The notes under the pieces were generated by a model that was given only the letters and a program-made list of their open reading frames with translations, made no database searches and was not told where the DNA came from. A stretch of DNA of 60,382 nucleotides, the filler included, from Globobulimina sp. (Eukaryota), in assembly GCA_003354225.1 (NCBI GenBank). It is 3 parts of 3 records of this genome, joined end to end, with 100 filler letters (N's around TTAATTAATTAA, not from the genome) between each part and the next. Parts side by side here need not be neighbours in the genome. Positions count along the whole stretch, not along the records: positions 1 to 23,686 come from PIVH01000001.1; 2 more parts are not named here. One strand, 5' to 3'. Positions 1 through 23,686 of this stretch are shown here, piece after piece; position 1 is the stretch's first letter, and each line of letters begins with the position of its first letter. Position numbers and translations under genes: made by a program.

Positions 1-418
1 TATATTATGATATAAAATAAAATTAATTAATTAATTATTATAGGGGTTTTTTGGTCCCTTATCCATACTACTTGGATATGAATTACTATTACTATATATT
101 ATATGATAATCATAAGATAATCATAAGATATTGATTAAGATTGTATGATACGCATTGTATCTCTTTATATATAGTAGTAAGGTATTTATTTTATAAATGA
201 GACGATTAATTAATTCATTTAATATGATAATATATAAAATGACCTGCCTACCCACCCCCCCGATTATTATTTTCCGTGATATTTTTTTCTCAACATTTTC
301 AAAATAAAATGGAATAATGAAACCCTTGAATAACATATCCTTTAAAATGGATACTTTACACCTTTTAAGTGGATTAGTTTTATTTGACCCTTTTTTAGGT
401 GTTTTTAACAAGATTGAG

Positions 419-683
419 AATAATGGTTCAAGGTAAATATATAATATAAATATGAAAATATAATCAATCAATAATGATATATAATATAAAATGAAAATAT
501 ATACTCATTTTATTACCCATCTATCCCCCCGATTATTTTTTTTATTGATTTATAAATACTGGTGATTATCATATATTAAAAATAATGGTTCAAGGTAAAT
601 ATATAATATATTAATGATATATTTTCCTCACATTTGACCCCCAAATATTTCTTTTACTCATTTTATTATCCATCTATCCGCCC
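419..683. repeat. Dispersed direct repeats in the left non-coding end
   Basis: AATAATGGTTCAAGGTAAATATATAATATA at 419-448 and 581-610; TACTCATTTT..CCATCTATCC at ~502-530 and ~655-683. Confidence 0.85.
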
Positions 684-698
684 TAAAATTACTGATAT

Positions 699-928
699 AA
701 AAGTGTGAGTTTTTGTGTTAATTTTTATTCAATTTTTACTTTTAGTTTGAGTAAGGTCATTTTCATTTTAGAGAGTGTTTTAGAGAGTGTTTTTGAGTTT
801 AGAGAGTGTTTTTAAAAGTGTGAGTTTTTGTGTTAATTTTTATTCAATTTTTACTTTTAGTTTGAGTAAGGTCATTTTCATTTTTGAGAGTGTTTTTGAG
901 AGTGTTTTTGAGTTTTGAGAGCGTTTTT
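699..928. repeat. Tandem duplication of a ~115-bp unit (left arm of the inverted repeat)
   Basis: Units 699-813 and 814-928 are nearly identical and contain internal GAGAGTGTTTT sub-repeats. Confidence 0.95.
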
Positions 929-1131
929 AAGGGTGTTGATGTTGCTATATTAACTCAATGATTTTCATTTCTTCAATCCTCATTGAAAAATATTTCATAT
1001 TGTTTGTATCTAATCTTATTAAATCTTTTGTGTATCTCTTATCATTATAATATTTTTTGATGAATGTATAAAATAATCTTAACATATATGAATTGTTATT
1101 ATACAATCAATATATATATTTTAATCTTAAA

Positions 1132-1479
1132 TTAATCTAACATTTTTATATATTCTTCTTCTTCTTCACTATCAGTAAATACTAATTCTATCATTGATGG
1201 TATTGATTGTTTAACTTTCTTATTCTTCTTTCTTCTTCTTCTCTTCTTTATTGGTGTAGCAGTAAAATAGTCATAAGTTTTATATAATGAAAATCCTAAA
1301 CCTATACCAGCAAACCCTAATAAAAATCCTCCTAAAAGTGCTTTTTTATTTTCACTTGGTCCTTTTGGTTCGTCAAATACCCAATCATCAAAAATATTAA
1401 GTTCATCATCTCCTACACATATACCACAATTTTTTAATGCTTCTCTCTTGTCTTCTTTTGATAAATCTTTAATACTCAT
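1132..1479 (-). CDS. Hypothetical membrane protein with basic tract
   Basis: Hydrophobic LLGGFLLGFAGIGLGFSLY, then KKRRRRKK and DSEEEEE. Confidence 0.75.
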   Translation of the reverse strand: MSIKDLSKEDKREALKNCGICVGDDELNIFDDWVFDEPKGPSENKKALLGGFLLGFAGIGLGFSLYKTYDYFTATPIKKRRRRKKNKKVKQSIPSMIELVFTDSEEEEEYIKMLD

Positions 1480-1664
1480 ATTTTATTATATTACTATACT
1501 ATTTTTTATTTTTTAAATAAAAACATAAAAATATATGATAAATCAAGGTAAAAAATTATAGAAATATCATAGAGATTATAGAGTGTATAGATACTATGAA
1601 AAAAGTTTATAGAATTAAAAAAATATTTTAAGAATTATTATATATTTATACAATATAATACAAT

Positions 1665-2303
1665 ATGAGTTTAGACAATCAACAATCAAAGGTAGAAATT
1701 ACAGAAAAACCAATAGATAATGTAGTCATTGAAAATATTACAGATTTAATTGATGATGATGTTATTAAATCACTAAACAAAGGAGAACAAGCAAAAATAC
1801 ACGCAGAGGATATTAAAAAAGCAAATATCAAATTAAGGTGTGAAAAGGCTCGTGCTGGTAAGAAAAACAAAGCAGAACAAATTAAAATGTTAGAACAACA
1901 ATTATTAGAACAAAAAAGACAAACTCAACAACCTAAACAAGCACAACCTAAACAAGATATTAATGCTTCTGTTAATAATTATAATAATATTCAAAATCAA
2001 CCAGTTCAAGGATTTAGTAATACTACTAAATTGATGTTTGGATTAGGTGGATTATCTACATTATTCCTTGGATATAAAATGTTTATTATGGAAGATACTG
2101 ATAGTGAATGGGATAGTGATGTTGAAACAAGAGAAAAGAAAAAGAAAATCAAAAGAGCATCAAAGAAAAACAAAAAAAGAAGAAAACGAAGAAGAGAAAA
2201 GAAAGAAAAGAAGGAGGTTTCAAGAACAGTAGCACCTACACCTATTACTAATAAGAAAAATTATTCACTTAACCTATCAAGGTTTAATAAACAAGATGAT
2301 TAA
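1665..2303 (+). CDS. Hypothetical protein with one TM helix and acidic/basic tracts
   Basis: 212-aa ORF; LMFGLGGLSTLFLGY hydrophobic segment; poly-K/R. Confidence 0.8.
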   Translation: MSLDNQQSKVEITEKPIDNVVIENITDLIDDDVIKSLNKGEQAKIHAEDIKKANIKLRCEKARAGKKNKAEQIKMLEQQLLEQKRQTQQPKQAQPKQDINASVNNYNNIQNQPVQGFSNTTKLMFGLGGLSTLFLGYKMFIMEDTDSEWDSDVETREKKKKIKRASKKNKKRRKRRREKKEKKEVSRTVAPTPITNKKNYSLNLSRFNKQDD

Positions 2304-2325
2304 AAAAAAAAGATTTTTTTAAAGT

Positions 2326-2333
2326 AAAATTGA
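2326..2333 (+). promoter_or_regulatory. AAAATTGA giant-virus-type early promoter (representative of 14 intergenic copies)
   Basis: Copies at 2326, 2759, 3383, 3593, 5240, 5904, 6488, 9361, 10282, 10882, 18275, 18690, 20184, 23173; usually extended as AAAATTGATTTG and upstream of + strand ORFs. Confidence 0.85.
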
Positions 2334-2369
2334 TTTGTATATATACTATTAAATAAACCAATTATTATA

Positions 2370-2681
2370 ATGAATAAACTTTTATTAAAAGACCAAACTA
2401 AATTAGTAAATAAACTTATTCAATTAGAAGAAATTGAATATAATGATATTCAAAACTCTATTATATATGATGAAGAAACAGAAGAAGAAGAAGAACAAGA
2501 AGTATATATTTGGTATTTAATTGATAGTTGTTATTTAGATGTATTTTTTGATTTAAAAACACCGATTATTGAATATGAAAGTCAAGTGTGGATAGGTCAA
2601 ACTTGGTATGGATGTTCTTGGAAAAACTCTCATTTATGGAAACCTCTGTGTGAGAAATTACCATTCTTAAAGAATGAATAA
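2370..2681 (+). CDS. Hypothetical protein
   Basis: 103-aa ORF behind AAAATTGA; Trp-rich C-terminus. Confidence 0.75.
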   Translation: MNKLLLKDQTKLVNKLIQLEEIEYNDIQNSIIYDEETEEEEEQEVYIWYLIDSCYLDVFFDLKTPIIEYESQVWIGQTWYGCSWKNSHLWKPLCEKLPFLKNE

Positions 2682-2686
2682 ACTAT

Positions 2687-2717
2687 TTTTTAAAAAACCA
2701 TATATTATAATGGACTT
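2687..2717 (+). terminator. Conserved bipartite 3' element TTTTTAAAAA-N9/10-A(T/A)AATGGACTT (representative of 6 copies); function inferred
   Basis: Copies start at 2687, 3325, 6957, 10818, 12042, 20734, each just downstream of a gene that has the AAAATTGA promoter. Confidence 0.6.
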
Positions 2718-7056: not shown

Positions 7057-7848
7057 ATGACTAAAAAAACAAAGAATAAAGAATGTGTTAATTTTTATAA
7101 CCATAACCATCACGGTATTTCTGTATTAGTTGGTCCTACTTTCTCTGGTAAATCTACGATTTTATTCACAATTCTTACTTCAAGTTTCTTGAAAAGATTT
7201 GTATATAAAAAAATATATATAGTTTGTGATGATACTTATAATGCTAATGAGTTATACAAAGTTTTAAACTTTAAAGTTAATTATATTTTTGAGTTTTTCA
7301 CACCAGAACTAATTGAAGAATTGTATGAAAAGGTAAAAGAAGATAGAGAAGAAGATATAAGAAAAGGTGAAATTAACCATTATGCTTTGGTAATGGATGA
7401 TTGTATAAATCATAAATGTTTTAATAAACGAGGTAGTGATGGTATAATATCAACGCTGGCTACAAAATCCAGACATTTTTTTTTAGATAATTACATACTT
7501 ACACAAAAATATAAAAGTATCCCAGATATAGTTCGTAAGAACACTCAATTTTTAATGGTTTGTGCTAATATTGGAGCAAAACAAGAAAGGGATGCGATAA
7601 TGGAAGAAATGAATATAATCAAAGATAATAATAATGAGTTTGTTAATCAAAATGTAATATGGAAGTTAGGACACAGAGTTAATAAAAAATATGATGTTTT
7701 AATATATGATATTAGAAATAAAAATGTATATAGAAACTTTCAATTATTAGATAAAGATTTATTAACAGAAGAAAATGAAAAATATGAAATGAGAAGATAT
7801 ATTAAAAAGAGAGAGTTTTTAGAAAAAATGGAAAAAATGAAGACTTAA
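7057..7848 (+). CDS. A32-like (FtsK/HerA) genome-packaging ATPase
   Basis: Walker A GPTFSGKST, Walker B LVMDD, A32 signature SRH..TQ..IP..RKN. Confidence 0.92.
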   Translation: MTKKTKNKECVNFYNHNHHGISVLVGPTFSGKSTILFTILTSSFLKRFVYKKIYIVCDDTYNANELYKVLNFKVNYIFEFFTPELIEELYEKVKEDREEDIRKGEINHYALVMDDCINHKCFNKRGSDGIISTLATKSRHFFLDNYILTQKYKSIPDIVRKNTQFLMVCANIGAKQERDAIMEEMNIIKDNNNEFVNQNVIWKLGHRVNKKYDVLIYDIRNKNVYRNFQLLDKDLLTEENEKYEMRRYIKKREFLEKMEKMKT

Positions 7849-7915: not shown

Positions 7916-8647
7916 ATGAGTAAAGGAAAATTAATATTAAACTTATCAAAATCATTATATAATCAAAAATCAGTAGGTCATTTTAAAGTTAAATTACCAA
8001 AGAAAATAGAGAACTTTAATTCTTTTTATATCCATAATGTTAATATGATTAATTCACAATATACAAGTAATTCATTTAATAATACATTAGAAGTTTATTG
8101 GAATACTCAATTAAAAACAATTACTATGCCTACTCAACTATTCTCAACGATAGATGATTGGTGTTTAGAATTACAAACTCAATTAAATACAACTTTTTCT
8201 ACAAGTTTATTTTCAGTAGCATCTAATTCTGCTACTATGAAAAAAATGACTATCAAAACAACTGATAGTTCTGTATTTGAATTAAGGTTTTCAACATCAT
8301 CAAGAATTAATAGAGTTATGGGATTTTTAGAACAAGATTTCGTAGGAACATATACATATACAGCAACAAAGTTTTATAAACTATATCCAAAATATTTTGA
8401 TTTTAGATGTGATGAATTAGTTCAAAATATTACAACTGAAATTGATAATGAAGATACAAAAAGTTTTTTACAAGTTGATATTACTAATTCTACTGGTGGT
8501 ATATTATTTAATAAAACTCATATTATAGAAGATATGGTTGCTCCATTAGGTTATTTAGAATATTTAACTATTTATATTTATGATGATGAAGGTAATGCTG
8601 TTGAATTACAAGACGACGAAATTATCATTACTATTTATTATAAATAA
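7916..8647 (+). CDS. Minor capsid (penton) protein, single jelly-roll, Polinton/PLV-type
   Basis: N-terminal FKVKLPKKI..NSQY..NN and C-terminal LTIYIYDDEGNAVEL pattern; adjacent to the ATPase. Confidence 0.75.
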   Translation: MSKGKLILNLSKSLYNQKSVGHFKVKLPKKIENFNSFYIHNVNMINSQYTSNSFNNTLEVYWNTQLKTITMPTQLFSTIDDWCLELQTQLNTTFSTSLFSVASNSATMKKMTIKTTDSSVFELRFSTSSRINRVMGFLEQDFVGTYTYTATKFYKLYPKYFDFRCDELVQNITTEIDNEDTKSFLQVDITNSTGGILFNKTHIIEDMVAPLGYLEYLTIYIYDDEGNAVELQDDEIIITIYYK

Positions 8648-10364: not shown

Positions 10365-10817
10365 ATGATGCCGTTAGACGATTTTAATATGATGGGATTA
10401 TCTGGATTTATTGGTATGCTTAATATTATAAAAAGTCATAAATTACCAGTAAAAAAATTAAAACAAGAATGTAGATATTTTAACATTAAGGGATTTAGTA
10501 AATTGAAAAAAGCAGAATTAAAAGAATTATTAATAAAAACATTTGAATCAAAAATTAACAGAATAATAGCACGGAGATTGAAAGATGTTGGAACTTCAAT
10601 AAGAGTTTTAGGTCTTATGAGTTATACAGAAGAAAATAGCACAAATATAATACCAAGTATGATGAAACCAAGAAAAGATTTTAATTACACAAAACGACAA
10701 TTACGCAAACAATCAAGTATGGTAAGAATTAATTATAAACTTGATTTAGTTGAAAAAGAAACAATTAATCAATTAGATAAAGACACTACAAATATGTTAT
10801 TATCTTTTATTGATTAA
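10365..10817 (+). CDS. Protein with Rho-N/SAP-like helix-extension-helix motif
   Basis: LPVKKLKQECRYFNIKGFSKLKKAELKELL. Confidence 0.65.
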   Translation: MMPLDDFNMMGLSGFIGMLNIIKSHKLPVKKLKQECRYFNIKGFSKLKKAELKELLIKTFESKINRIIARRLKDVGTSIRVLGLMSYTEENSTNIIPSMMKPRKDFNYTKRQLRKQSSMVRINYKLDLVEKETINQLDKDTTNMLLSFID

Positions 10818-10917
10818 TTTTTAAAAAACAATATTATAAAATGGACTTATTTTAATATAAAAAAAAATATTTATTTATATTAAAATTGATTTGTATATTA
10901 TTTATATAATAACATAA

Positions 10918-11985
10918 ATGACTACTCAAACAGTTAAACCAATAAAAGCATTCTTCGGCAGAACTGGTGGAAAACATTTTAGTAAAAAATCAATATTACC
11001 ATTTATAGAACATTTAGAATATGACACTTATGTTGAACCATTTGTAGGTGCTGGTTCTATATTATTAGGAAGAAAGAAGAAAGTATCAAGAGAGATTATT
11101 AATGATTACGACCAATTAGTAGTTAATTTATGGAAAGGAATGAAATCAAGTGGAAATGAATTAAATGATTACTCATTATACTTTCAAGATAAATCTGTAT
11201 TTAAATGGTGGTTATTAAAAGAGAAACAATATAGAAGATTAAGACATTTAAAAGGAGAATATAAAGGAGGTCAAAAATATATTGATGAGATATATAATAA
11301 TACTGATTTTGGTATTGAGATTTTAAAAGAAGATATTTTTATTACCACGCATAGTAGAATGGCTAATAATAATAAACCAGACGGGAAATTAAAAGATAAT
11401 CATTATAGGTGTTGTCATTTTAGAGAGAAAACAAAAGAACTTAAAACAGAAACAATTGAAGAAGAAAAAGAAGATAAAGAAGTTTGTTGTTCTATTGAAA
11501 AAACAGAAGAAGGATTGAAATTAATAAAACGAAAATATTATGTTAGAAATAAGAAACATAGTGGAGATGAAACTAAATGGAGATTACATAACCCTAATTT
11601 ATGTGGATGGAATACTGTTTTAAAACAATGTAATAGATATTACGAAAGATTAAGAGACATTGAAATAAATCAAGGAGATTATAAAGAAATGCTACAATAT
11701 GATACTCCTAAAACATTATTTTATTTTGACCCACCTTGGACGAAAACTGCTACTGGTAAAAAGGGTAATAGTTGTTATAGTGGATGGGTTGAATTAGAAG
11801 ATTTTTATAATTCTATAAAAGATTTAAAAGGAAAATGGATGTGTTCTTATAATAACGATGAAGATATATTAAAAAGATTTGAAGGTCATAGAATAGAATA
11901 TATAAATACTATTTATACACAGAAAAAAACGGGTTCAAAGAAAACTGTTGATGTATTAATATTCAGTAAGAACTTTTTTGATTAA
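10918..11985 (+). CDS. D12-class (Dam-like) N6-adenine DNA methyltransferase
   Basis: GGK, YVEPFVGAGS, IINDYD, catalytic FYFDPPW, W..SYN. Confidence 0.9.
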   Translation: MTTQTVKPIKAFFGRTGGKHFSKKSILPFIEHLEYDTYVEPFVGAGSILLGRKKKVSREIINDYDQLVVNLWKGMKSSGNELNDYSLYFQDKSVFKWWLLKEKQYRRLRHLKGEYKGGQKYIDEIYNNTDFGIEILKEDIFITTHSRMANNNKPDGKLKDNHYRCCHFREKTKELKTETIEEEKEDKEVCCSIEKTEEGLKLIKRKYYVRNKKHSGDETKWRLHNPNLCGWNTVLKQCNRYYERLRDIEINQGDYKEMLQYDTPKTLFYFDPPWTKTATGKKGNSCYSGWVELEDFYNSIKDLKGKWMCSYNNDEDILKRFEGHRIEYINTIYTQKKTGSKKTVDVLIFSKNFFD

Positions 11986-12133: not shown

Positions 12134-12448
12134 ATGGTTTCAAAGAAAACAAAAACAGTAGCAAAGGCAACATTAATTTCATCAGCAGTAGGCGCTGGTG
12201 CTTATTTTGTATATAAACATTACAATTTAAGAATGAGAGTAAAGGCAGCAGCAGATACAGTCAAAGATTTTGAACCTAAAAATCTATTAAAGTCAAAAAG
12301 ATTTCATAACGCAGATAAATCTATTTCTTTCAAAAAATATACAAAAAAAAATACTTCTATCGCATATAAATATCAAAAAATCAAAACCTCTGCGAAAGAT
12401 GAAAATAAATCAATTGATTTATCATTTAGACAAAACAAATATTTTTAA
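12134..12448 (+). CDS. Small protein with N-terminal TM helix
   Basis: ATLISSAVGAGAYFVY. Confidence 0.75.
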   Translation: MVSKKTKTVAKATLISSAVGAGAYFVYKHYNLRMRVKAAADTVKDFEPKNLLKSKRFHNADKSISFKKYTKKNTSIAYKYQKIKTSAKDENKSIDLSFRQNKYF

Positions 12449-12511
12449 ACGATTAAGATATTAAAACAAAATAAAAATATTAATTTATAATATAACATAT
12501 AATAAATTAAA

Positions 12512-12844
12512 ATGGATACAGTTATTAAACAAACAATCGCAATGAAAGATGATTTGAAAGATAGTTTTAATAAACCTAAAAATACTAATGATAGAGAATT
12601 ACCCAGTTGGTTTAAGTATTCTGTTTATGGAATTGCTACCGTATTTCTTGGTTCTTTATATCACGGACTTAATATGAAAGAAGAACTTTTCAATTCTACT
12701 ATTGAAGTTGTAAAAGATGCGAATGAAGTTGTAGGAGTTAATAAAGCATATGAAGGAGCAAGTGATACTTTAATTGGTTTATTCAATTTTCCAGTTGAAA
12801 AATCAAATGAAGGTTCAAAAACCTTTAATGGAAAACAATTTTAA
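12512..12844 (+). CDS. Small protein with one TM helix
   Basis: WFKYSVYGIATVFLGSLY. Confidence 0.75.
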   Translation: MDTVIKQTIAMKDDLKDSFNKPKNTNDRELPSWFKYSVYGIATVFLGSLYHGLNMKEELFNSTIEVVKDANEVVGVNKAYEGASDTLIGLFNFPVEKSNEGSKTFNGKQF

Positions 12845-12890
12845 AATAGAAATAAAAAACTATGTATATTATATAAAACAAAAAAGTATA

Positions 12891-13265
12891 ATGGGTTTTT
12901 TCAAGAATATTGGAAAGTCAGTAAATAAGAAAATAATTAAACCAGTAGGTAAGGAATTGAAAAAAGCAGACCCTATTGGAAAAGTAAAGGATGTTGCGGA
13001 AGATGCTCTTCAATTTTTTGAAAAAATTGGTTCAAAATTATCCGTTATTGGAAAGGATATTGGTTCAATTTTTGAATTACAATTCAAATTATTAGAGAAT
13101 ATAATAAAATTAGTGCCTACAATAATTTCAATTTTAAAGAACTCACTTGTATTATTTTCTACTACTTGTGAGGTATTAGAATTATTGATTATTATTGGTC
13201 CAGTTTTAATAACATATTATTATATATCAAGAATGATTACCAATTTTGAGAAAAATGATTTATAA
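12891..13265 (+). CDS. Amphipathic protein with hydrophobic C-terminus
   Basis: ATG 12891 (MGFFKNIGK) follows an AT-rich leader; C-terminal LLIIIGPVLITYYYI. Confidence 0.7.
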   Translation: MGFFKNIGKSVNKKIIKPVGKELKKADPIGKVKDVAEDALQFFEKIGSKLSVIGKDIGSIFELQFKLLENIIKLVPTIISILKNSLVLFSTTCEVLELLIIIGPVLITYYYISRMITNFEKNDL

Positions 13266-13335
13266 TGAATATTCAAAGGAGTAAATATAATAAATATAAA
13301 ATATTATAATATTATATAAAACATAAAATATTATA

Positions 13336-13821
13336 ATGCTTTCATTTAAAAAAGATATTATGAAAATGAAACAATCTGCTAAACAAATAAGTAAAAAAGT
13401 TGAAAAAACTGTTGAAGAGAATACTAAAAAAACAATTGAAACTGTTAAAAAAACTGTTAAAAAAACTGTTGAAAAAATTAATTATAGTGATATACATAAA
13501 GATTGTAGTTATTTTGATTACAATACATATATACACAAATTAACATTATTAAAAAATACATTTTTATCCAAAATTAATGGAAAGATTAATGAAATCAAAA
13601 CTGATGAAGAAATTAAAGATATTAAAAAGAAAGAAGCAGTCAAAGGTTTAAAATCAATTGTTAAATATATTGATGACCTATTTGATGTATTATTAAAGGT
13701 TGTTAAAGTTTTAGCGAATAGTGTTGAACGAATAACATTATTCTTACCATCATTCTTAAAAATCATTCCTTTATTTTTTATAATTTATACTGGAATGGCT
13801 GTATTTAATAGTTTAAATTAA
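13336..13821 (+). CDS. Amphipathic protein with C-terminal TM helix
   Basis: KKTV repeats; IIPLFFIIYTGMAVF. Confidence 0.75.
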   Translation: MLSFKKDIMKMKQSAKQISKKVEKTVEENTKKTIETVKKTVKKTVEKINYSDIHKDCSYFDYNTYIHKLTLLKNTFLSKINGKINEIKTDEEIKDIKKKEAVKGLKSIVKYIDDLFDVLLKVVKVLANSVERITLFLPSFLKIIPLFFIIYTGMAVFNSLN

Positions 13822-13985: not shown

Positions 13986-15179
13986 ATGTCTAAACAAAAA
14001 CCAACATATATGAAAGATGAAGAAATCCACGACTTATCAAACACAAAAACATCAATCGTAATATTAGAACCAGTTGGAGCATTAGATTATGTAAAAACCA
14101 ATACTGGTGCTAATTTTATTGAGTTTCAAATGCCTAAATCTGGTATTTTTGATATGAGAGTAGCATATGTAAAAGGATTAACTCAATCTAACGGAATAAT
14201 GAGTAAAGATATTCAAGCATCAGTTTCTTCTTTTGAAGTAAGAGTTGGTGGTAAAGCAATATTTAAAAGTAGTGAAATGAACGCCGACAACATCATTAAT
14301 CCATTAATCAATAAATTAACTTTAACCGATTTTCAAGTAGCAGATGGAGATTATCAATTATACAATCAAACTTGTATTGCCGATACTGATTATCCATTTC
14401 AATTAAAATTATCAAATGAAAATAAACATTTTGGACTATGTCCCATTTTAAACAAAACAATTGACTTTTCTTTAATTAAAGATAAAGTTGTATTAAGAAT
14501 TATTTTTGATAAAACAGTTTCTAATCATTGCCATACATTAGCAACTACCCGACAATGGACCGATATGAGATTAATGTTAGAGAAAATTGATGCTGATATT
14601 GATTTATCCAGTGAAGTTGTATTCAAATCAGTTGGTTATTCAATCATTCAACAAACTCAATTAGCAAGTTCTAATAAATGTAAAATTGATATGAGCGGAT
14701 TAGACCACGATAACGTAATTGGTGTAATTCCAATGATGATTTCAAGTGATAATTTTAATTCAAGTGATTTAGCAGAAAAATATCTAAATAACTTTGATTA
14801 TACTGGATTAAAAAACTTACAAGTCTATAATGACTATAATCCAATCCTATCCCACGAACCATTAGAGATGGAAGATTATTTCCAAACACAAAACCTAATG
14901 GCTGAAAAGTTTTTAGGAACAAGATTTAAGAAAAATCAAGCGAAAATTGGAACATATCATTCTACTTATGCTAAAACAGCAACAGACAGCAAAAGATGTC
15001 TATTAATTCCTTTATCCGCAAATGTAAAATCTTTATCTGGATTAAATCTATCCAAAAGTGATACAAGTTCAGTAGAGTTCGGTATTGCTAATACAGTTGA
15101 TATGACTGTATGGAGTGTTGTATTATATACAAAAATATTTGCCCTTGAAAATGGTAAGTTCGTAGCAGTATTAAATTAA
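13986..15179 (+). CDS. Major capsid protein, double jelly-roll (Polinton/PLV-type)
   Basis: 397 aa, beta-rich; N-terminal P..FIEFQMPKSGIFD pattern resembles Polinton/PLV MCPs; same contig as the ATPase and penton. Confidence 0.75.
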   Translation: MSKQKPTYMKDEEIHDLSNTKTSIVILEPVGALDYVKTNTGANFIEFQMPKSGIFDMRVAYVKGLTQSNGIMSKDIQASVSSFEVRVGGKAIFKSSEMNADNIINPLINKLTLTDFQVADGDYQLYNQTCIADTDYPFQLKLSNENKHFGLCPILNKTIDFSLIKDKVVLRIIFDKTVSNHCHTLATTRQWTDMRLMLEKIDADIDLSSEVVFKSVGYSIIQQTQLASSNKCKIDMSGLDHDNVIGVIPMMISSDNFNSSDLAEKYLNNFDYTGLKNLQVYNDYNPILSHEPLEMEDYFQTQNLMAEKFLGTRFKKNQAKIGTYHSTYAKTATDSKRCLLIPLSANVKSLSGLNLSKSDTSSVEFGIANTVDMTVWSVVLYTKIFALENGKFVAVLN

Positions 15180-15459: not shown

Positions 15460-17040
15460 ATGTTTAACAATAACGGATTTAATATAGATGGAAATAATTT
15501 TTTTAATACTGTAAATACAAATCAATTAATTACTGATAAAATAGAGGTTGATAGTGCTGTAATCCAAGGTGGATTAATAGTTGATGGAGGAACATTAACT
15601 ATTGATGAAACTTTAAATGCTGTTGGTATAAATTGTTTAACTCCAACATTAGATTTAACTATTCAAAACTCTTCCACTGGTTTTGAGGTAGGGAATAGTG
15701 GTAATATGTATATTGTAAGAGAAAATGAAACAATGATTACTTTGGGAACTGATACTACTATTCATACTAATACTATAATTGATGGTAATATTACAACAGA
15801 TACTTTAAATGTCTCTGGAACTGCTAATATTACTGGTAATTTAATAATTCAAGACCAGTTATATTTTAAAGACAGTAATACGAGAATTAAAGAATGGAAC
15901 GGTGATATGGTATTTTTAACCAATAATACTGAAAGAATGAAAATTGATGAACCTGCTGGTGATATTAACATTACAAATAGTTTAGATGTAGGAAGTAATA
16001 TAACAAGTCAAACTTTAACAACAACCAGTATAGCAACTTTTAATGATGATGTAATAATTATAGGTGATTTAAATGTTAATGGAACAACAACAACAATTGA
16101 TACACAAAATCTAACCATAGAAGACAGTATGATTAAACAATCAAAAAACAATTATTTAAGTGATTTAATTGATATTGGAGAATATGGAGTTTATAATAAT
16201 GGAACAACTGCTTATACTGGAATGTTTAGAGATGCTGATGATGGAGTTTATAAGATTTTCAATAGTTTAGAAGTTGAACCAACAACAACAGTTGATATTG
16301 GAGCAACTGGTTTTACTTATGCTGATTTAATGATAAATGATTTAACAGCAATTAATTTGAACGCAGATTATATTCAAATTACAGATGATAGTTTATATCA
16401 TTCACAATTAGGCGTAAAGGAACTCAAACTCTTTAACCCATCTCGGGGACACTTCTCAATTTTGAATACTGATGGTGAAGCAAGTAATGCGGCAGAGTTT
16501 GTAATCGCAACCACGAATACTGGGCCGGGATTAGGTTTAACACCAACTCCTTTATTTACATTAACAGAAGGAGGTAATTTAGACATTAAAGGTGATATTA
16601 CAGCAACTAATATCCCTACTACTGGTGGTGTTTTAAATATGATTATGGCTGATACATCAAGTGGTTTAGTAGCAATTGATACTACTTGTAGCACAACAAG
16701 TGAAACTGCTATGTATTATTACGCATATAGTCCAATATCATCAACGGGGAAAATATTAGTAGAAACTAATTTCCCTTATATCGTAAATGGGGATGGTAGT
16801 GATAGTTTTGAAGCAAGATTAAAGTTTTCTTACAATAATGCTCCAACCACTTTCTATACTTTACAAATGAAAATGTATGGCTCATCAACCAGAAAAAACA
16901 ATATAGATATATTATGGGGGAATATTGATAAAACGGGAGAAGACATTTTAATTAAGTTTTATGTTAATAGATTATCTAGTAATGATACTTACACAAGCAC
17001 AACAGCAGAAGCAATGATAAAAATTACAGAAACAAATTAA
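15460..17040 (+). CDS. Fibre/spike-like virion protein
   Basis: Repeated I.GN(I/L) beta motifs; GDLNVNGTTTTIDTQNLTIED and YTGMFRDADDG resemble phage and giant-virus fibre proteins. Confidence 0.7.
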   Translation: MFNNNGFNIDGNNFFNTVNTNQLITDKIEVDSAVIQGGLIVDGGTLTIDETLNAVGINCLTPTLDLTIQNSSTGFEVGNSGNMYIVRENETMITLGTDTTIHTNTIIDGNITTDTLNVSGTANITGNLIIQDQLYFKDSNTRIKEWNGDMVFLTNNTERMKIDEPAGDINITNSLDVGSNITSQTLTTTSIATFNDDVIIIGDLNVNGTTTTIDTQNLTIEDSMIKQSKNNYLSDLIDIGEYGVYNNGTTAYTGMFRDADDGVYKIFNSLEVEPTTTVDIGATGFTYADLMINDLTAINLNADYIQITDDSLYHSQLGVKELKLFNPSRGHFSILNTDGEASNAAEFVIATTNTGPGLGLTPTPLFTLTEGGNLDIKGDITATNIPTTGGVLNMIMADTSSGLVAIDTTCSTTSETAMYYYAYSPISSTGKILVETNFPYIVNGDGSDSFEARLKFSYNNAPTTFYTLQMKMYGSSTRKNNIDILWGNIDKTGEDILIKFYVNRLSSNDTYTSTTAEAMIKITETN

Positions 17041-17135: not shown

Positions 17136-18104
17136 ATGGAAGTAGTATTATTAAGTATCGCTGGAATATCAGCAACATTATTAAAAGTAAGTGTAATGGG
17201 AGTTGGATTAAAAGAATTAGCACCATCCACTTTCTCTGGATTAATTTTATTAACGAAGTTTTGGAAAAAATCATACGCAATAACCAAATTATCACAGTGT
17301 CTTTTTTTCAGTATTTTTGTGAGATTACCAAGAAAAAGTGATAAAGACCTCATACAATTTAGAAAACTTGTAAAGAAGATTTGGTCCAGACATTCTGCTT
17401 ATGAAATCTATCGTTATTATAGGTATGTAAAAGCATTAAGTCCATTAATTTTACAAGCCAATTTAAGTCAAGATGAAATCTTTATGGAGAATAAGCACGA
17501 AATCCTATTAAATTGTGATAGGTTCAAAGATTATGTATGTAAAGCCTTATATTGTAATGCTTTATCTAAAATCATTGAAGTTCAATTATGGTGTGCTTCT
17601 GCCCCAATTAAAGATATACAAAAATTAAAATATTCATTTTTATTTAATTTAGCAGAAAAGAAAACAGTATCAGTAGAGCAATGTAGAACTATCTGCGAGC
17701 AATTTGAAGAGAAAGTCAATAAATATCAAGTATCTCAAATGGAAAAATATGCTACTGATTTTGATTGTGAAAAAACTGTTATTGATAATATCTTTGATGA
17801 ATTAGAGAATGACGATGATACATTTAAAGAAGGAGCAATTGGGTCAATTGTTATGATTAGAAAATGTATTATGAGACAAAAACACGCAGTAGGTTATGAT
17901 AATTTTAATTCATTATCATCAACTTTAACTGGAATTAACGAACAAGTTGAAACCAGTAAGAACTTAAAATCTGGTTCAACAGAAGAAGCAAATAGAGTTC
18001 ATCAATTATTCCATCAAGATAGACAAAATAGTATTTTAAGTGATACTCCAAGTGTATCAACAACATCAACAACATCAACAATATCAAGAACAGAAAGAAA
18101 TTAA
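17136..18104 (+). CDS. Hypothetical protein with hydrophobic N-terminus
   Basis: 322-aa ORF. Confidence 0.8.
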   Translation: MEVVLLSIAGISATLLKVSVMGVGLKELAPSTFSGLILLTKFWKKSYAITKLSQCLFFSIFVRLPRKSDKDLIQFRKLVKKIWSRHSAYEIYRYYRYVKALSPLILQANLSQDEIFMENKHEILLNCDRFKDYVCKALYCNALSKIIEVQLWCASAPIKDIQKLKYSFLFNLAEKKTVSVEQCRTICEQFEEKVNKYQVSQMEKYATDFDCEKTVIDNIFDELENDDDTFKEGAIGSIVMIRKCIMRQKHAVGYDNFNSLSSTLTGINEQVETSKNLKSGSTEEANRVHQLFHQDRQNSILSDTPSVSTTSTTSTISRTERN

Positions 18105-18779: not shown

Positions 18780-20138
18780 ATGAATAATCAAAATCAAGAA
18801 GAAGAAGAAACAATTTTAGATATTACCGAAGAATTAACTGACGAGGAACAAACAACACAAATATTAAATGATGACCCTTTAATATGTATTTGTAGAGATT
18901 GTATTCAAAACCACGGACAAGATGGAAAAACATTCACAGCAAAAAGAAATAAATCAAGACATTTAAAAAGAATGGCTAAAATGGTTAAAAAGACAAAAAT
19001 CATTTATAATTGTAAATGTAAAGTCTGCCTTAAAAAATACGGAATTAATGGAAGAACTGATTTTGATAAATACGGATATGAAAGACATTTAAAAGCAATT
19101 GAAAACAAAATCAAAAGAGATAATAAAGTTTATATATGTGGGTGCTGTAATAAAGATTGGGAACATCAAAGCATATTAGATAAACATCAAGGGGGAGATA
19201 AGTATAGAACTTGGTATAATACGATGAATGGTGAAATTAATGGAATTAAGATTTTTACAACCAGTAAAGATAAAACATTTACGAAGGAGATATTAAATAA
19301 AGAAGCAGAAGAAAAAAAAAATATAATTACTGAAAAATATAAAAAAACATTAGGACAAGATAAAAAAACATTAGAACAAGAATTAAAAGAAGAATTAAAA
19401 AAGTTTGAAGAAAACACAATAGGGGAGGATTATGATACAATTACCTTAAAATGTATTGAATGCTCTATATGTAAAGTTTATTGTAATGATTTAAAAAAAC
19501 ATACAGAATTAGAAACTCATAAATGGATATTAAATTATTTATCAAATCAAAATACTCAAAATAATTACAGTTATTCAAAATATACAAATATGATGTTATA
19601 CAATCAATTATATAATAGAAACGCAATTAATAGAATAGCAAGGTCAAGAGACACCAGAGAAGATTTTAAAAAAGCAGAACAGAAATTAACCAGATATTTT
19701 GAAGGAGATAATAACAATAACAATATCAAAGAGAATAAACAAATACACGGTTATAATAAAATGATGATTGTAAAAAGTTTAAACGGACAAAATACATTAA
19801 ATAAACAATATTATAAATCATTTAAACAGTTCAATTGTAAATGCTGTAAAACATCATTTAAATTATATGAAACATTTAAAAGACATAACGAAAAGAATGA
19901 ATATTATCATATAGAACAAGAGAAAGAAAGAAAAGAAGAGAAAAAACAAAAACAACAATATTTAATAGATAGTGGAAATTATAGAGTTTTATCACTTTTC
20001 AATATGGGTTATGGTATTGACGCATTAACATTTGAAAATATGCGACAAAAAACCTCAATAGATATTAGAGCAGAACGAGCAGAACGATATGATGAAATAA
20101 CAGAAAAGAATAAATGGGAAAAAATGATAATAGATTAA
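18780..20138 (+). CDS. Multi-Zn-finger protein
   Basis: Several CxC/CxxC..H motifs (CICRDC..RH, CKCKVC..RH, CGCC..KH, CSIC..KH, CKCC..RH). Confidence 0.8.
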   Translation: MNNQNQEEEETILDITEELTDEEQTTQILNDDPLICICRDCIQNHGQDGKTFTAKRNKSRHLKRMAKMVKKTKIIYNCKCKVCLKKYGINGRTDFDKYGYERHLKAIENKIKRDNKVYICGCCNKDWEHQSILDKHQGGDKYRTWYNTMNGEINGIKIFTTSKDKTFTKEILNKEAEEKKNIITEKYKKTLGQDKKTLEQELKEELKKFEENTIGEDYDTITLKCIECSICKVYCNDLKKHTELETHKWILNYLSNQNTQNNYSYSKYTNMMLYNQLYNRNAINRIARSRDTREDFKKAEQKLTRYFEGDNNNNNIKENKQIHGYNKMMIVKSLNGQNTLNKQYYKSFKQFNCKCCKTSFKLYETFKRHNEKNEYYHIEQEKERKEEKKQKQQYLIDSGNYRVLSLFNMGYGIDALTFENMRQKTSIDIRAERAERYDEITEKNKWEKMIID

Positions 20139-20262: not shown

Positions 20263-20733
20263 ATGAGTAAAACTTTTTGTAGATTTTGTAAAAAAGAGTA
20301 TTCTTTGAATTATTATAATTCCTATCATATTAAGAGTAAAAAACATTTAGGATTAAAAAAAGAAATTGAAGACAAAGAAGAATTGAATAATTTTAGAGTA
20401 GAAAAACAAAAAGAAGAAATAAGTAATAATTTTATGATTGAGTTTATGAATATGAAAAAGAAAATGTTAGAAATGGAGAAAAGAATTAAAGAGTTAGAGA
20501 AAAATGAAGATATTAATGATTTAATTGGAGAAGGTGTAATTACAGAGAGAAGATTTGTAATAGTTAAGAAACAAAAATGTAATGTTTGTAATGAAGAAAA
20601 AGATTTGAATATGTTTGATATTGATAGAAAATGTAGAAATGGAAGAAGAAAGAGATGTAAAGAGTGTAGAAGAGTTAGAAAGAAAGAATTAGATTTGGAA
20701 AAGATATTAGAGAGTTGTTTAAACATAGTTTAA
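20263..20733 (+). CDS. Zn-finger / coiled-coil protein
   Basis: CRFC..HIKSKKH and CNVC..CKEC. Confidence 0.8.
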   Translation: MSKTFCRFCKKEYSLNYYNSYHIKSKKHLGLKKEIEDKEELNNFRVEKQKEEISNNFMIEFMNMKKKMLEMEKRIKELEKNEDINDLIGEGVITERRFVIVKKQKCNVCNEEKDLNMFDIDRKCRNGRRKRCKECRRVRKKELDLEKILESCLNIV

Positions 20734-20937
20734 TTTTTAAAAAATGTAATTGTATAATGGACTTGTTTTTAAGAATAAGTATTTATAAAGATATTAAAGT
20801 ATTTTTATAAATCAAATTGTAAAGAAAATCAAAAGTGTAAATATATTAGGGTGCTGGTAATGTGAAGTTTATTACAATCTATATCAATATTTTTATTTTG
20901 AGTTAATTCATCAATAAATAAATATACACCTTATAAA

Positions 20938-21025
20938 GGTTCTCTTAAAGTTCTTAAATGGTTCTCTTAAAGTTCTTAAATGGTTCTCTTAAAGTTCTTA
21001 AATGGTTCTCTAAAAGTTCTTAATA
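20938..21025. repeat. 22-bp tandem repeat x4
   Basis: GGTTCTCTTAAAGTTCTTAAAT x3 plus one degenerate copy. Confidence 0.95.
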
Positions 21026-21056
21026 GTTCTCAATTTATATATTTATATATAATATA

Positions 21057-22166
21057 ATGACTGAAATTAAAAAAAAATATCCGTGTCCTTATTGTGGGGT
21101 AGAATACGAACATCCTACATCTATGTATAAACATAAAAATCATAAATGTAAAAAGAACCCTAAACGAAAAATAAATAAAGAAATTGTAAAAAATGAAATA
21201 CTCGCAAATAAATCAAAAACATTTAATAAAATGGTTAAAGAAGAAGTTAAAGAACAAGTAAAAGAACGAATTGTATATATAGATAGAGATAAGGAAGTAT
21301 ATAGAGATAATCCAGCAAATATAAATAGAATTAGACAATTAGAAAATAGAATTAGAGAACTTGAAACCGAAATATATCATATAAATAATATTACACCTCG
21401 TAGAAATAATAAAATCCAAAATACAATAAAAAAATTACGAACTGATAATCAAACATTACGAAATGATAATCAATCAGTATATAAAGAAAATCAAACATTA
21501 CGAAATTATAATCAATCAGTATATAATGAGGGCTTTAATGAAGGTGCTAAATCTATTTTTGAAGATGATACTATACGAGATTTAAGATTTTCTCAAAATA
21601 GAGATAATATCAATTTAAAACATAAATCCATAAGTGAAGCAACAACACCTCATTTTGAAATTGATTTAACACCAAAGAAGAAGAAGAAACGAGGAAGACC
21701 AAAAAAACAAATAAAAGATATAAATGAATATAAAAGAGGACCACAAATTAAGATAAAAAAGATGGAAACAGAACACGATAAAAATATAGAAATGAAAGCA
21801 GCAGAAAGAGTTAAAAAACAGAAAGAAGATAAAGAAAAGTTAATAAAACAAAAACAAAAATTAACACAAAAATTAACACAAAAATTAACAAAACCTAAAC
21901 CAAAACCTAAACCAAAACCTAAACCAAAACCTAAACCTAAAACAAAAAAACAAATACATAATGAACCACTCATAATAGAAGAGAATAATATGATTAATAA
22001 ATTAAGAAACAAACTTAATGATATAGATAATAACAAAAAATTAGGTGAATGGACGAAAAAAAAGAAGAAACGAGCAATAGAACTAAAAATTAAAGGTTGT
22101 AATAACCGTATTTTTAAATTAAGTAAAACGGACAAAAATAAGTTTAGATATGTTGAATATAAGTAA
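21057..22166 (+). CDS. Zn-finger protein with coiled coil, AT-hook and KP repeat
   Basis: CPYC..H..C; KRGRPKK; (KP)n. Confidence 0.8.
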   Translation: MTEIKKKYPCPYCGVEYEHPTSMYKHKNHKCKKNPKRKINKEIVKNEILANKSKTFNKMVKEEVKEQVKERIVYIDRDKEVYRDNPANINRIRQLENRIRELETEIYHINNITPRRNNKIQNTIKKLRTDNQTLRNDNQSVYKENQTLRNYNQSVYNEGFNEGAKSIFEDDTIRDLRFSQNRDNINLKHKSISEATTPHFEIDLTPKKKKKRGRPKKQIKDINEYKRGPQIKIKKMETEHDKNIEMKAAERVKKQKEDKEKLIKQKQKLTQKLTQKLTKPKPKPKPKPKPKPKPKTKKQIHNEPLIIEENNMINKLRNKLNDIDNNKKLGEWTKKKKKRAIELKIKGCNNRIFKLSKTDKNKFRYVEYK

Positions 22167-22200
22167 AACGGAAAATAATAAGTTTAAATATGTTGAATAT
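22121..22200. repeat. 40-bp tandem duplication across the stop codon of 21057-22166
   Basis: AAGTAAAACGGA..AATAAGTTTA.ATATGTTGAATAT x2. Confidence 0.9.
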
Positions 22201-22206
22201 TAATAT

Positions 22207-22371
22207 ATGAAAATACCGAACGATATTCAAGACATAATCAAGGATTATTTAGGTTATTTAAAATGCCCCAAGTGTGGAATAAGAATAGATAAATATTTTA
22301 AACTGTATAAACATTATTTCAAGAAACATAAGAAAGGTTTTATCAATAATGATTTAATATTAAAATATTAG
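22207..22371 (+). CDS. 54-aa F-box-like plus C2H2 finger protein (absent from ORF track)
   Basis: Manual translation MKIPNDIQDIIKDYLGYLKCPKCG..LYKHYFKKH. Confidence 0.6.
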   Translation: MKIPNDIQDIIKDYLGYLKCPKCGIRIDKYFKLYKHYFKKHKKGFINNDLILKY

Positions 22372-22400
22372 TTAATAATATAATATTAGTTAATAATATA

Positions 22401-22679
22401 ATGGATAATATGGATTATATTTATAAAATAATGGTAAAAAGAGAAAATGAATATACGAACAAAAAATCATATTGTTATGCGTGTGATTGTGAATTATACT
22501 ATCATAAACATCATATAAAAAGTTCTAAACATCAAGAACAAATTAAGAAGTTAAAAGATACAAAAATCAATATTATTATGGTTGAAAATGCTCTTAAAAA
22601 TTGTGAAATCAAAACTAAATTAATGAACTTTGGGAAGTTCTATAAAGATAAACAATTTAAGTTAAAAAAAATATATTAA
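22401..22679 (+). CDS. Zn-finger protein
   Basis: CYACDC..HIKSSKH. Confidence 0.75.
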   Translation: MDNMDYIYKIMVKRENEYTNKKSYCYACDCELYYHKHHIKSSKHQEQIKKLKDTKINIIMVENALKNCEIKTKLMNFGKFYKDKQFKLKKIY

Positions 22680-22701
22680 TCAATATTATATAAATATAAT
22701 A

Positions 22702-23037
22702 ATGAGTAATTTAAGAAATGGATTAGTAGAAATAGACACGGACGATGTTGAGAAAATGGACGAAAACGAACACGGTAATTTAGTCATTTATGTTAATTAT
22801 GAAAAATTGGGAAAATATGCTTTAACTTTTTTTGACGGATTTGAAAGAGAGTTTAATGATGAGAAAGAAACTTACGGACACGCAGACATATTTTTTAAAA
22901 GTAATAGCGACAAAGTTGGGAAAGTGATTGGGACAAAAGAGGACATAATTCATTTTATGGATTTTGTAGAAGACCATTTTAAAGAACCTATTTATTTAGA
23001 AAACGAAAAGCATTTAGTATTATTAATTGAACCTTAA
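22702..23037 (+). CDS. Hypothetical protein
   Basis: 111-aa acidic ORF. Confidence 0.75.
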   Translation: MSNLRNGLVEIDTDDVEKMDENEHGNLVIYVNYEKLGKYALTFFDGFEREFNDEKETYGHADIFFKSNSDKVGKVIGTKEDIIHFMDFVEDHFKEPIYLENEKHLVLLIEP

Positions 23038-23149
23038 AACACTCTCTAAACTCAAAAACACTCTCTAAAACACTCTCTAAAATGAAAATGACCTTACTCA
23101 AACTAAAAGTAAAAATTGAATAAAAATTAACACAAAAACTTACACTTTT
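23036..23149. repeat. Right arm of sub-terminal inverted repeat
   Basis: Reverse complement of 699-812 with about 1 mismatch. Confidence 0.95.
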
Positions 23150-23216
23150 TAAAAAAAAGATTTTTTCATATCAAAATTGATTATTATTATATTGTTAAAT
23201 AATATACTATTTAACA

Positions 23217-23561
23217 ATGTCTATTCCAAACAGAATGATTAAGAAACTATTTGAATTAAAGAAAGTAAAAGATATTACAAAAGACCATAAACAATTTTTA
23301 CATTATACAATAGCAGAAGCAGTTGGAGAATGTAAATGCTGGGGTGATTTTCTTAATTTTATGAAAACATACGGTCATATAGATTGGGTAAATGAATATA
23401 ATAAATGGATTACTTCAAATAAAACAATTTGGGTTGTATATGATTTATCATTTAATAACAAGGAGAATAAGAAATATTTTAAAAATGGTGTAATGATAAA
23501 TAAAACTATTATCAAATATCAAGGTGAAAAAATCACTAAATATATAGTAAAGAAGAAATAA
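23217..23561 (+). CDS. Hypothetical protein
   Basis: 114-aa ORF behind AAAATTGA. Confidence 0.75.
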   Translation: MSIPNRMIKKLFELKKVKDITKDHKQFLHYTIAEAVGECKCWGDFLNFMKTYGHIDWVNEYNKWITSNKTIWVVYDLSFNNKENKKYFKNGVMINKTIIKYQGEKITKYIVKKK

Positions 23562-23686
23562 GCCCTTATAATACCCTATGAAACAATCAAAAATAAAGAA
23601 TATGGATTAAAAACATTTTAATTATGAATAACTTATTCTTAATTAATCCACAATTTATTAAACTCACCTTTCATCTAAATCATTGA

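Follow-up and report, generated by a model that had tools for sequence, protein, structure and literature searches.

Among giant viruses, PBCV-1 encodes restriction-modification (R-M) systems for GATC and CATG (PMC7248222), CpV-BQ2 is credited with 13-14 DNA methyltransferases and at least eight predicted R-M systems (PMC6459981), and ChlorV strains are reported to carry N6-methyladenine (6mA) in TGCA and to encode an RCGY methyltransferase adjoining an endonuclease (PMC13196603). The 6mA motifs described for AaV (Kratosvirus quantuckense) are CTAG, CTAGY, CTNAG, TTCTNAG, CTAAG, CTNNAG, CYTAGC, GTNNAC, and TGNNCA (PMC12700378); GATC and CATG are unmethylated there, and GTNNAC and CTNNAG are assigned to methyltransferase clades that comprise only Imitervirales. 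An action of giant-virus R-M on virophages as well as polinton-like viruses (PLVs) stands in print as an open hypothesis, at least in the sections available (10.1101/299784; PMC7253447; PMC13196603), and a 2026 preprint found no recognizable counter-defense genes in virophages and suggested simple strategies (10.64898/2026.08.10.744029). Here, we describe a 60,382-nucleotide window from a Globobulimina sp. assembly (GCA_003354225.1), which consists of three unrelated contigs with N spacers between them: contig 1 (positions 1-23686, 23.4% GC; PIVH01000001.1), contig 2 (23787-42221, 29% GC), and contig 3 (42322-60382, 40% GC). Contig 1, the element in question, is nearly devoid of a large set of palindromic words. 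We consider it likely that contig 1 represents a satellite with a small genome of double-stranded DNA (dsDNA), probably a PLV, that depends on a mimivirid-type helper virus and has been purged of the sites of Type II-like nucleases met during co-infection.

Palindromes of mixed composition are missing from contig 1

The original prediction held that GATC, CATG, TGCA, AGCT, and GTAC are absent from contig 1 and common in contigs 2 and 3. Tetramer counts and their ratios to second-order Markov (Markov-2) expectations bore this out: none of the five was present in contig 1 (expected, 48.6, 45.9, 43.4, 32.7, and 33.7 copies, respectively), which is nowhere near expectation, whereas contigs 2 and 3 held 29-81 copies of each at observed/expected ratios of 0.53-1.06. 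The extent of the loss had been understated, as it covers at least 17 motif classes. TCGA (0 versus 12.9 expected), CTAG (1 versus 23.8), and ACGT (1 versus 17.2) were also missing or nearly so, and the eight tetramer palindromes that mix A/T with G/C occurred twice in total against about 258 expected. The tetramers with a count of zero were seven palindromes and CAGG. For GC-only palindromes, the expectations were too low to judge (CCGG, 1/5.7; CGCG, 0/1.9; GCGC, 1/2.4; GGCC, 1/1.5, observed/expected), and AT-only palindromes were normal (AATT, 378/458; TTAA, 468/442; TATA, 463/469; ATAT, 545/519). Among tetramers with an expectation of at least 8 copies, 8 of 12 palindromic ones were purged compared to 1 of 210 nonpalindromic ones. 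Avoidance of the full degenerate RGCY (CviJI-type) site could not be upheld, since its 13 copies against 48.3 expected reflect a loss confined to AGCT.

Interrupted and longer words were affected too. Against 200 Markov-2 simulations, contig 1 contained GANTC once (43.6 expected), TGNCA three times (35.4 expected), and no GTNAC (37.5), CTNAG (37.1), TCNGA (47.1), AAATTT (79.1), or GAATTC (6.4). A greedy search through 20,480 words, both contiguous and gapped, added TGNNCA (0/54.5), CTNNAG (0/43.1), and GTNNAC (1/39.3), with Poisson P values of 1e-9 to 1e-37, and RAATTY was absent. Chlorovirus enzymes exist for GTAC, TGCA, RGCY, and GANTC, and bacterial prototype enzymes exist for ACGT, GTNAC, CTNAG, and RAATTY. 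Hpy188I is a TCNGA enzyme, and Hpy166II is a GTNNAC enzyme (PMC12700378). Other palindromes were left in place, namely, ACNGT (35/38.6), CAATTG (14/8.1), TTTAAA, AATATT, ATTAAT, GGNCC, and GCNGC; CANTG (31/52.9) and AGNCT (12/27.0) were only partially depleted. Among 399 asymmetric 4- and 5-mers, CAGG/CCTG alone came near zero (2 versus 30.7), the other depleted words being by-products of palindromes, and a palindrome-based reading leaves this asymmetric purge without explanation.

To compare sequences, we counted the motifs, among 25-31 palindromic ones with an expectation of at least 8 copies, that were observed at 10% of expectation or less. By this metric, 17 of 25 motif classes were purged in contig 1 and none in contigs 2 and 3. 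The selection is real, sequence specific, and palindrome specific.

The purge is visible in codons and dipeptides

Contig 1 contains 31 open reading frames (ORFs) on the plus strand and 2 on the minus strand at the left end. As a null, synonymous codons were shuffled 300 times within each of the 31 plus-strand ORFs (18,315 nt). The shuffles yielded 11.6-58.3 copies per purged motif, of which 0-3 were observed; the unpurged controls ACNGT, CANNTG, ACNNGT, AGNNCT, and GANNTC matched the shuffle expectation. That codon choice is bent around the missing words, as had been noticed earlier by eye, was borne out by the counts. Asp before C is encoded by GAC in all 12 cases, with GAT outnumbering GAC 320 to 38 elsewhere, and His before G is CAC in 13 of 13 cases. 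GCA does not follow T in any of 107 instances, and GCT never follows A. Lys-Phe is always AAG-TTY (18/18), and so is Glu-Phe GAG-TTY (8/8).

Nine dipeptides (CH, CQ, CT, HV, MH, MQ, VT, WH, and WQ) cannot be encoded without creating a purged word. Together, they occur twice in 6,074 residues, both times as CH, compared to an expectation of 47.2 and a minimum of 30 in 500 residue shuffles; VT alone would be expected 17.9 times and is absent. This near-absence of nine dipeptides indicates that selection has reached the protein sequences. Contig 1 thus presents an unusually clear case in which selection at the nucleic acid level sets which dipeptides proteins may hold.

Relatives and virophages carry lineage-specific purges

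Two genes of contig 1 recur in its relatives:

10918..11985, plus strand: predicted D12-class N6-adenine DNA methyltransferase (PF02086, 6.7e-14; PHROG 56, 2.2e-34)
7057..7848, plus strand: packaging ATPase, FtsK/HerA Pox_A32 type (PF04665, E value 8.3e-08, 32.4 bits against a cut-off of 22.8; PHROG 2666, E value 3e-08)

Twelve short metagenome loci with a GC content of 18-24% (L117-L128) bear the methyltransferase, and three of these (L121, L122, and L127) also bear an A32 ATPase. The full contig-1 pattern was copied by L119 and by the 5.3-kb locus L127, in which the eight tetramers were counted 0 times against 52 expected, RAATTY 0 times against 21, and ACNGT 7 times against 5.7. L121-L124, L126, and L128 retain some or all of GATC, TGCA, TCGA, GTAC, TCNGA, and RAATTY near expectation while still lacking CATG, ACGT, GTNNAC, and nearly all CTAG, AGCT, and CTNNAG. 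The CAGG/CCTG purge, compared with these 12 relatives, was found in contig 1 only. Contigs of 21-23 kb that bear an A32 ATPase and are more distantly related had each purged a few words: GATC (0/34), TGCA (0/70), GTAC (0/15), and AGCT (1/32) in L186/L189, CATG (0/44) in L185/L192, and TGNNCA (0/25) and GTNNAC (0/13) in L187/L190. L186/L189 encode a primase-helicase and, at 10751-11752 beside the ATPase, a methyltransferase of another family, N6_N4 (PF01555, 1.2e-28), which suggests that the methyltransferase slot in these elements is variable in its occupant. The avoided set differs between related lineages, which speaks for exposure rather than chemistry.

As a background, we used 86 viral loci from IMG/VR that had been fetched solely by an extended form of the promoter string described below; this search returned at least 116 single-match loci, mostly unrelated. 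No motif was purged in 59 of the 86, one in 17, two in 6, and three, four, six, and seven in one locus each, compared with 17 of 25 in contig 1. In L063, which is among the most strongly purged of them, the set includes TGNNCA and GTNNAC; Pfam returned nothing diagnostic for this locus or for L016. Seven loci labeled as belonging to giant-virus metagenome-assembled genomes (MAGs) had purged 0-1 motif. One of them, L061 (12.8 kb), is an example of a helper-type genome at contig-1 composition: it has 23% GC, 11 copies of the promoter core AAAATTGA, and not a single purged motif, with only mild depletion of the eight tetramers (121 versus 180).

Forty-five viral loci with a distant D12 methyltransferase comprised 39 with no purged motif, 3 with one, 1 with two, and two outliers with six and nine. 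These two, L133 and L182, are virophages according to Pfam matches to the Sputnik major capsid protein (MCP; 1.8e-96 and 2.1e-54) and the penton. A virophage sample was seeded on their capsids, and the best 80 of 282 matches were taken. Sixty-two of these loci were 6 kb or longer, of which 59 had purged at least one motif and 26 at least ten; after clustering by shared 13-mers, the corresponding figures for 36 clusters were 34 with at least one, 18 with at least five, and 9 with at least ten. The motifs purged, by number of loci, were CATG (37), GATC (36), GTAC (35), TGCA (34), AGCT (30), TGNNCA (30), TCGA (28), CTAG (26), GCGC (26), GTNNAC (26), ACGT (25), GGCC (24), CGCG (22), and RAATTY (13). 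In the 36 representatives, 158 of 528 palindromic tetramers were purged compared to 20 of 8,293 nonpalindromic ones; the background values were 47 of 1,154 and 0 of 18,573. The pattern was all or none. In L221, GATC was present at 116 copies (111 expected) and every other mixed A/T and G/C tetramer was at 0, and in L216 GATC was at 0 against 94. L195, L199, and L204, which carry a D12 methyltransferase, keep only CATG (31-41 copies versus 52-57 expected). In L259, L263, L265, and L269, even AATT is purged (0 versus 40-58), and L182 has 7 copies versus 80, which implies an AATT-specific agent in these virophages. Contig 1, at 77% AT, keeps 378 AATT copies.

These patterns bear on two explanations that involve no nucleases. 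Short palindromes are reported to be mildly under-represented in many genomes (PMC3077040), and a structural or mutational bias against them, such as avoidance of hairpins and cruciforms or methylation-driven decay, might be invoked. We regard this as very improbable. AT-only palindromes, ACNGT, CAATTG, and the CANNTG/ACNNGT/AGNNCT series are at expectation, most purged words contain no CpG, and the depletion is all or none and differs between close relatives, as for GATC in L221 and L216; lineage-specific binary patterns of this kind already contradict such a bias.

A still more remote explanation is an artifact, that is, a misassembly or a sequence designed to be free of sites. The near-complete loss of common cloning-enzyme sites, for example, GAATTC, AAGCTT, GGATCC, and TCTAGA, is what a synthetic sequence could look like. 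Independent metagenome contigs whose methyltransferase genes are 70-87% identical at the nucleotide level show the same purge, however, dozens of virophage contigs are purged too, and an assembler is unable to remove sites; hardly anything in the data thus favors this account.

Promoters and gene content of contig 1

The plus strand of contig 1 contains 19 copies of the core AAAATTGA, described as the early promoter of mimivirids (PMC5294985), compared to 5.3 expected; 15 of these copies are intergenic, at a distance of 4-132 nt from the ORF start that follows. Its usual context in contig 1 is TAAAATTGATTTGT (repeat families D1-D5). The plus-strand starts of the intergenic copies, and two examples, are as follows:

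2326, 2759, 3383, 3593, 5240, 5904, 6488, 9361, 10282, 10882, 18275, 18690, 20184, 23112, 23173: intergenic AAAATTGA starts
2326..2333, plus strand: AAAATTGA core 44 nt upstream of the ORF at 2370
10882..10889, plus strand: AAAATTGA core 36 nt upstream of the methyltransferase gene

PgVV-14T, a PLV whose ORFs all run one way, is likewise reported to use the mimivirid early promoter (bioRxiv 10.1101/2022.07.28.501842). Through these motifs, contig 1 appears to be tied to a mimivirid-type giant virus, by whose machinery it would be transcribed. The helper indicated is thus of the mimivirid type and not of the chlorovirus type to which the original prediction referred. A second signal lies just downstream of ORFs:

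2708 (..2722), 3345, 6978, 10839, 12063, 20755, plus strand: TAATGGACTTATTTT, 15 nt (repeat families D11 and D12)

Six copies of TAATGGACTTATTTT were found compared to 1.14 expected, and none of 100 shuffles reached six. A T-run/A-run palindrome often precedes it. It could possibly serve as a 3'-end or termination signal, perhaps of the helper's transcription system.

The remaining features of contig 1 are listed here:

698..927: two tandem 115-nt units, with an inverted copy at 23036-23154 (95-99% complementary)
7916..8647, plus strand: 243-residue ORF adjoining the ATPase gene (Atlas feature score of 0.98 to viral clusters; DUF5901 in 13% of the members of one cluster)
12134..13821, plus strand: four small ORFs with hydrophobic stretches, candidate membrane proteins by eye
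13986..15179, plus strand: 397-residue candidate MCP, unconfirmed (Atlas score of 0.97 to viral clusters)
15460..17040, plus strand: 526-residue fiber-like protein (72 partial homologs, query coverage of 11-42%)
17136..18104, plus strand: 322-residue ORF in common with L127 (phmmer, 8.6e-22 to L127:3010-3885)
18780-20138, 20263-20733, 21057-22166, plus strand: three lysine-rich ORFs whose translations contain Cys/His zinc-finger-like motifs
23217..23561, plus strand: 114-residue ORF in common with L123 (phmmer, 8.4e-18)

The few residual sites in contig 1 lie in three genes:

10918..11985: two of the three TGNCA sites (methyltransferase gene)
14529: third TGNCA site (397-residue ORF)
14713: sole ACGT (397-residue ORF)
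16523/16525: GGCC/CCGG (C-terminal part of the fiber gene)
16976: CTAG (C-terminal part of the fiber gene)

In phmmer searches, the ATPase matched ATPases of L183-L194, L121, L122, and L127, and it had no match in a set of 5.8 billion proteins. The 243-residue ORF next to it, for which neither Pfam nor PHROG gave a match, is possibly a minor capsid (penton) protein and should be taken as a lead only. Atlas clusters near the 397-residue ORF contain Capsid_N or Capsid_NCLDV in 12-16% of their members; the ORF itself had no Pfam or PHROG match and two weak partial matches among 1.84 billion representatives, and its single-sequence AlphaFold model was unusable (pLDDT of 30). Some homologs of the fiber-like protein carry Peptidase_S74, YadA, or Mtd_N domains, and its residues 164-314 are 45% identical to P0002. 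Two of the small hydrophobic ORFs (12774-13265 and 13336-13821) were scanned and had no family match. The lysine-rich ORFs gave only weak zf-C2H2 matches (E value, 0.13), and KP repeats are present in 21057-22166; tandem 22-nt units lie in the intergenic region before this ORF (20935-21022). The 115-nt units and their inverted copy are both located about 0.5-0.7 kb inside the contig ends, and comparison of the ends revealed no terminal overlap and no terminal inverted repeat.

None of the 20 contig-1 ORFs scanned had a Pfam match to a polymerase, primase-helicase, or integrase; a module for replication or integration may lie off the contig. Models for the Sputnik-type MCP (PF21915/PF22031) and the V18/19 penton (PF21507), which do match L133 and L182, did not match the contig-1 ORFs scanned, and IMG/VR searches with peptides of the capsid candidate, the fiber, the ATPase, or ORF 17136 returned no relatives. 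At 23,686 bp, although with undefined ends, contig 1 falls within the size range of about 14-40 kb reported for PLV genomes (PMC12220804). Because its ORFs run one way and it combines an A32 ATPase and AAAATTGA promoters with no virophage capsid match, we assign contig 1 with moderate confidence to the polinton-like satellites of mimivirid-type viruses and do not file it as a virophage.

The same gene content could be read differently, with contig 1 as a bacteriophage that lacks a tail and contains a membrane, whose AT-rich bacterial host has very many R-M systems, and with the purge as ordinary anti-restriction. The ATPase also matches a terminase-annotated PHROG, the methyltransferase matches phage families, the fiber domain is common to phage and bacterial proteins, and avoidance of multiple sites is known from phages (PMC6286503). 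We nevertheless judge a phage improbable. Fifteen intergenic AAAATTGA cores precede single ORFs, a tblastn search of 50,697 phage records with the ATPase gave no match, 8 of the 10 largest contig-1 proteins are without a PHROG, and the Atlas neighbors are clusters labeled as eukaryotic viruses. Moreover, bona fide virophages show the same purge, including TGNNCA and GTNNAC, the purged set matches a giant-virus methylome, and 59 of the 86 background viral loci, mostly of type not known, purge nothing.

Regarding the other contigs of the window, contig 2 contains short ORFs, nine of them of at least 150 residues; seven were scanned and had no Pfam match save a marginal Cpn10. It shows mild depletion only (CTAG, 14 versus 44.8 expected; GATC, 34 versus 55.2), and AAAATTGA is not enriched. 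Contig 3 contains one minus-strand ORF of 5,367 residues (42472-58575) with von Willebrand A (VWA) domains in its N-terminal 1,525 residues, followed by a 394-residue VWA protein (58608-59792); its GC content is 40%, and its tetramer usage is ordinary.

The methyltransferase of contig 1

The methyltransferase scored 52.7 bits against PF02086 (cut-off, 22), and the motifs FVGAGS and FDPPW were seen in alignments, so that the enzyme is predicted to be of the D12-class (alpha) N6-adenine type. A match to TIGR00571 (3.3e-12) fell below the cut-off of that model. PADLOC assigned the protein to MTase_II and oMTase, and its nuclease scan of nine other contig-1 ORFs, including the four just upstream of the methyltransferase gene, found none; with no nuclease beside it, the methyltransferase is called an orphan. 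Homologs are 56-75% identical. The nearest solved structures are remote (7m6b, E value of 5e-09; DpnM, E value of 4e-08) and, like the NCBIfam matches, too distant to predict the target. At the nucleotide level, only this gene can be aligned to L117-L128 (blastn, 70-87%), the flanking genes having diverged beyond recognition; in this it resembles a cassette that is either under strong conservation or exchanged laterally.

Source of the selection

The purge in contig 1 extends to all five palindromic classes that AaV methylates (CTAG, CTNAG, CTNNAG, GTNNAC, and TGNNCA), and many virophages have purged two of them, TGNNCA and GTNNAC. Taken with the loss in contig 1, the purges in many virophages suggest that giant viruses and their parasites are engaged in an arms race over restriction enzymes, in which we infer nucleases encoded by the giant viruses to be the selective agent. 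The satellite would replicate together with a mimivirid-type giant virus and be transcribed from helper early promoters. Co-infection would expose its unmethylated DNA to many palindrome-reading Type II-like nucleases, whose most likely source would be helper giant viruses that shield their own genomes through methylation at the same motifs. Such self-protection is proposed as the reason why giant-virus contigs are unpurged. An element of 24 kb would be too small to hold some twenty methyltransferases and is therefore proposed to escape passively, by loss of sites. Purifying selection would remove each new site through synonymous codons or, where no codon pair works, through avoidance of the dipeptide. 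Where a lineage holds a suitable methyltransferase, one site class could be kept at full frequency (CATG in L195-type virophages, GATC in L223), and the single adenine methyltransferase of contig 1 presumably serves a site too frequent to purge; a tentative guess would be a common AT-rich site that contains adenine and has been spared, such as one inside AATT. The earlier proposal of an escape from helper giant-virus restriction is thus sustained as far as selection, promoters, lineage patterns, and the AaV motif match are concerned, the helper origin of the nucleases being the part reached by reasoning.

The nucleases might instead come from the cellular host, from competing satellites, or from other co-infecting viruses, or the purge might be collateral of nucleases directed at host DNA. 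We hold this to be unlikely, although it ranks above the other alternatives. No bearer of the nucleases has been identified; host endonucleases have been considered a possible reason for AaV methylation (PMC12700378), the nucleases countered by PLV methylases have been ascribed to giant viruses or the host (PMC12220804), and chlorovirus nucleases are reported to degrade host DNA (10.1101/299784). On the other hand, unpurged giant-virus contigs and the methylation of the same motifs by AaV fit self-protection from the viruses' own enzymes. Type II R-M is documented in giant viruses, and no such battery was met in algal nuclear genomes, for which no search was made.

Several points count against a satellite under attack by helper nucleases. 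No restriction nuclease gene was identified, and giant-virus genomes were not searched for such genes. In the part of the AaV report at hand, the methyltransferases are described without cognate nucleases and host endonucleases are raised as a possibility (PMC12700378), and Acanthamoeba mimivirids, their virophage, and transpovirons are reported to be unmethylated (PMC7253447). The polinton-like assignment is weak, with no confirmed capsid fold and no replication gene found, and contig 1 may be incomplete. The virophage sample is biased by its seeding and does not amount to a neutral census. Among the background loci, L016 and L063, both of type not known, purge 6 and 7 motifs, so that a strong purge is not proven to be exclusive to satellites; these two may be further unrecognized satellites. 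Four large viral records with the extended promoter string contained no D12 methyltransferase. Finally, the purge gives no account of the target or role of the conserved methyltransferase, because nearly all obvious adenine palindrome targets (GATC, CATG, etc.) are gone; this qualifies the earlier suggestion that the purge is consistent with the element having a methyltransferase of its own.

Comparison with known systems

If satellites are indeed under pervasive attack by giant-virus nucleases, the words purged from each of them would reveal which sequences the nucleases of its helpers recognize. Such a list could then predict restriction enzymes of giant viruses, for example, for TGNNCA, CTNNAG, TGNCA, RAATTY, and CCTG, and purged words could pair satellites with helpers in metagenomes. 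Seen in contig 1, its relatives, and most of the virophages sampled and absent from giant-virus contigs, the purge is direct genomic evidence, from the parasite side, for the existence and importance of such nucleases. It also offers a cheap sequence signature for spotting satellites and predicts specificities that include gapped and AT-only sites. A broader generalization, for which we see the case as evenly balanced, is that virophages and PLVs are under pervasive attack by a shared, diversified Type II-like arsenal of algal giant viruses and that their main counter-defense is the wholesale deletion of target words, which reshapes their proteomes.

In open-access papers and preprints, supplements excluded, we found no report of palindrome or restriction-site avoidance in virophages or PLVs. 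Site avoidance itself is classical for phages; what is new here is evidence for the open hypothesis that giant-virus R-M acts on these satellites. Avoidance in phages and plasmids (PMC6286503; PMC10359461) likewise concerns palindromic Type II sites, works mostly through synonymous codons, and is lineage specific. Contig 1 differs in its giant-virus and satellite setting, in having 17 of 25 motif classes near zero (maximum of 7 in the background), and in the near-absence of nine dipeptides.

The PLV closest in organization is PgVV-14T (Gezel-14T) of Phaeocystis globosa virus, which, like contig 1, is a small dsDNA satellite with one-way ORFs expressed as single units; its genes, too, have AAAATTGA upstream, and one of them codes for a phage fiber-like protein (10.1101/2022.07.28.501842). 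Contig 1 has no detectable sequence similarity to it save for the ATPase class, and no MCP, polymerase, or integrase was recognized in contig 1. Site avoidance is not mentioned for PgVV-14T in the available part of that report. The virophages (L133, L182, and L195-L274 from IMG/VR) share with contig 1 the all-or-none purge and largely the same motif catalog, and some of them carry a D12 methyltransferase that is 34% identical to that of contig 1. Unlike them, contig 1 gave no match to a Sputnik-type MCP or penton, and its GC content is 23% compared to mostly 27-55%, too low to judge the GC-only palindromes that many virophages purge. The giant viruses PBCV-1, ChlorV, and AaV methylate their own motifs, in some cases with cognate nucleases, and all those motifs are purged in contig 1. 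In contrast to PBCV-1, AaV, CpV-BQ2, and ChlorV, contig 1 is presumably the target, and its only methyltransferase is an orphan.

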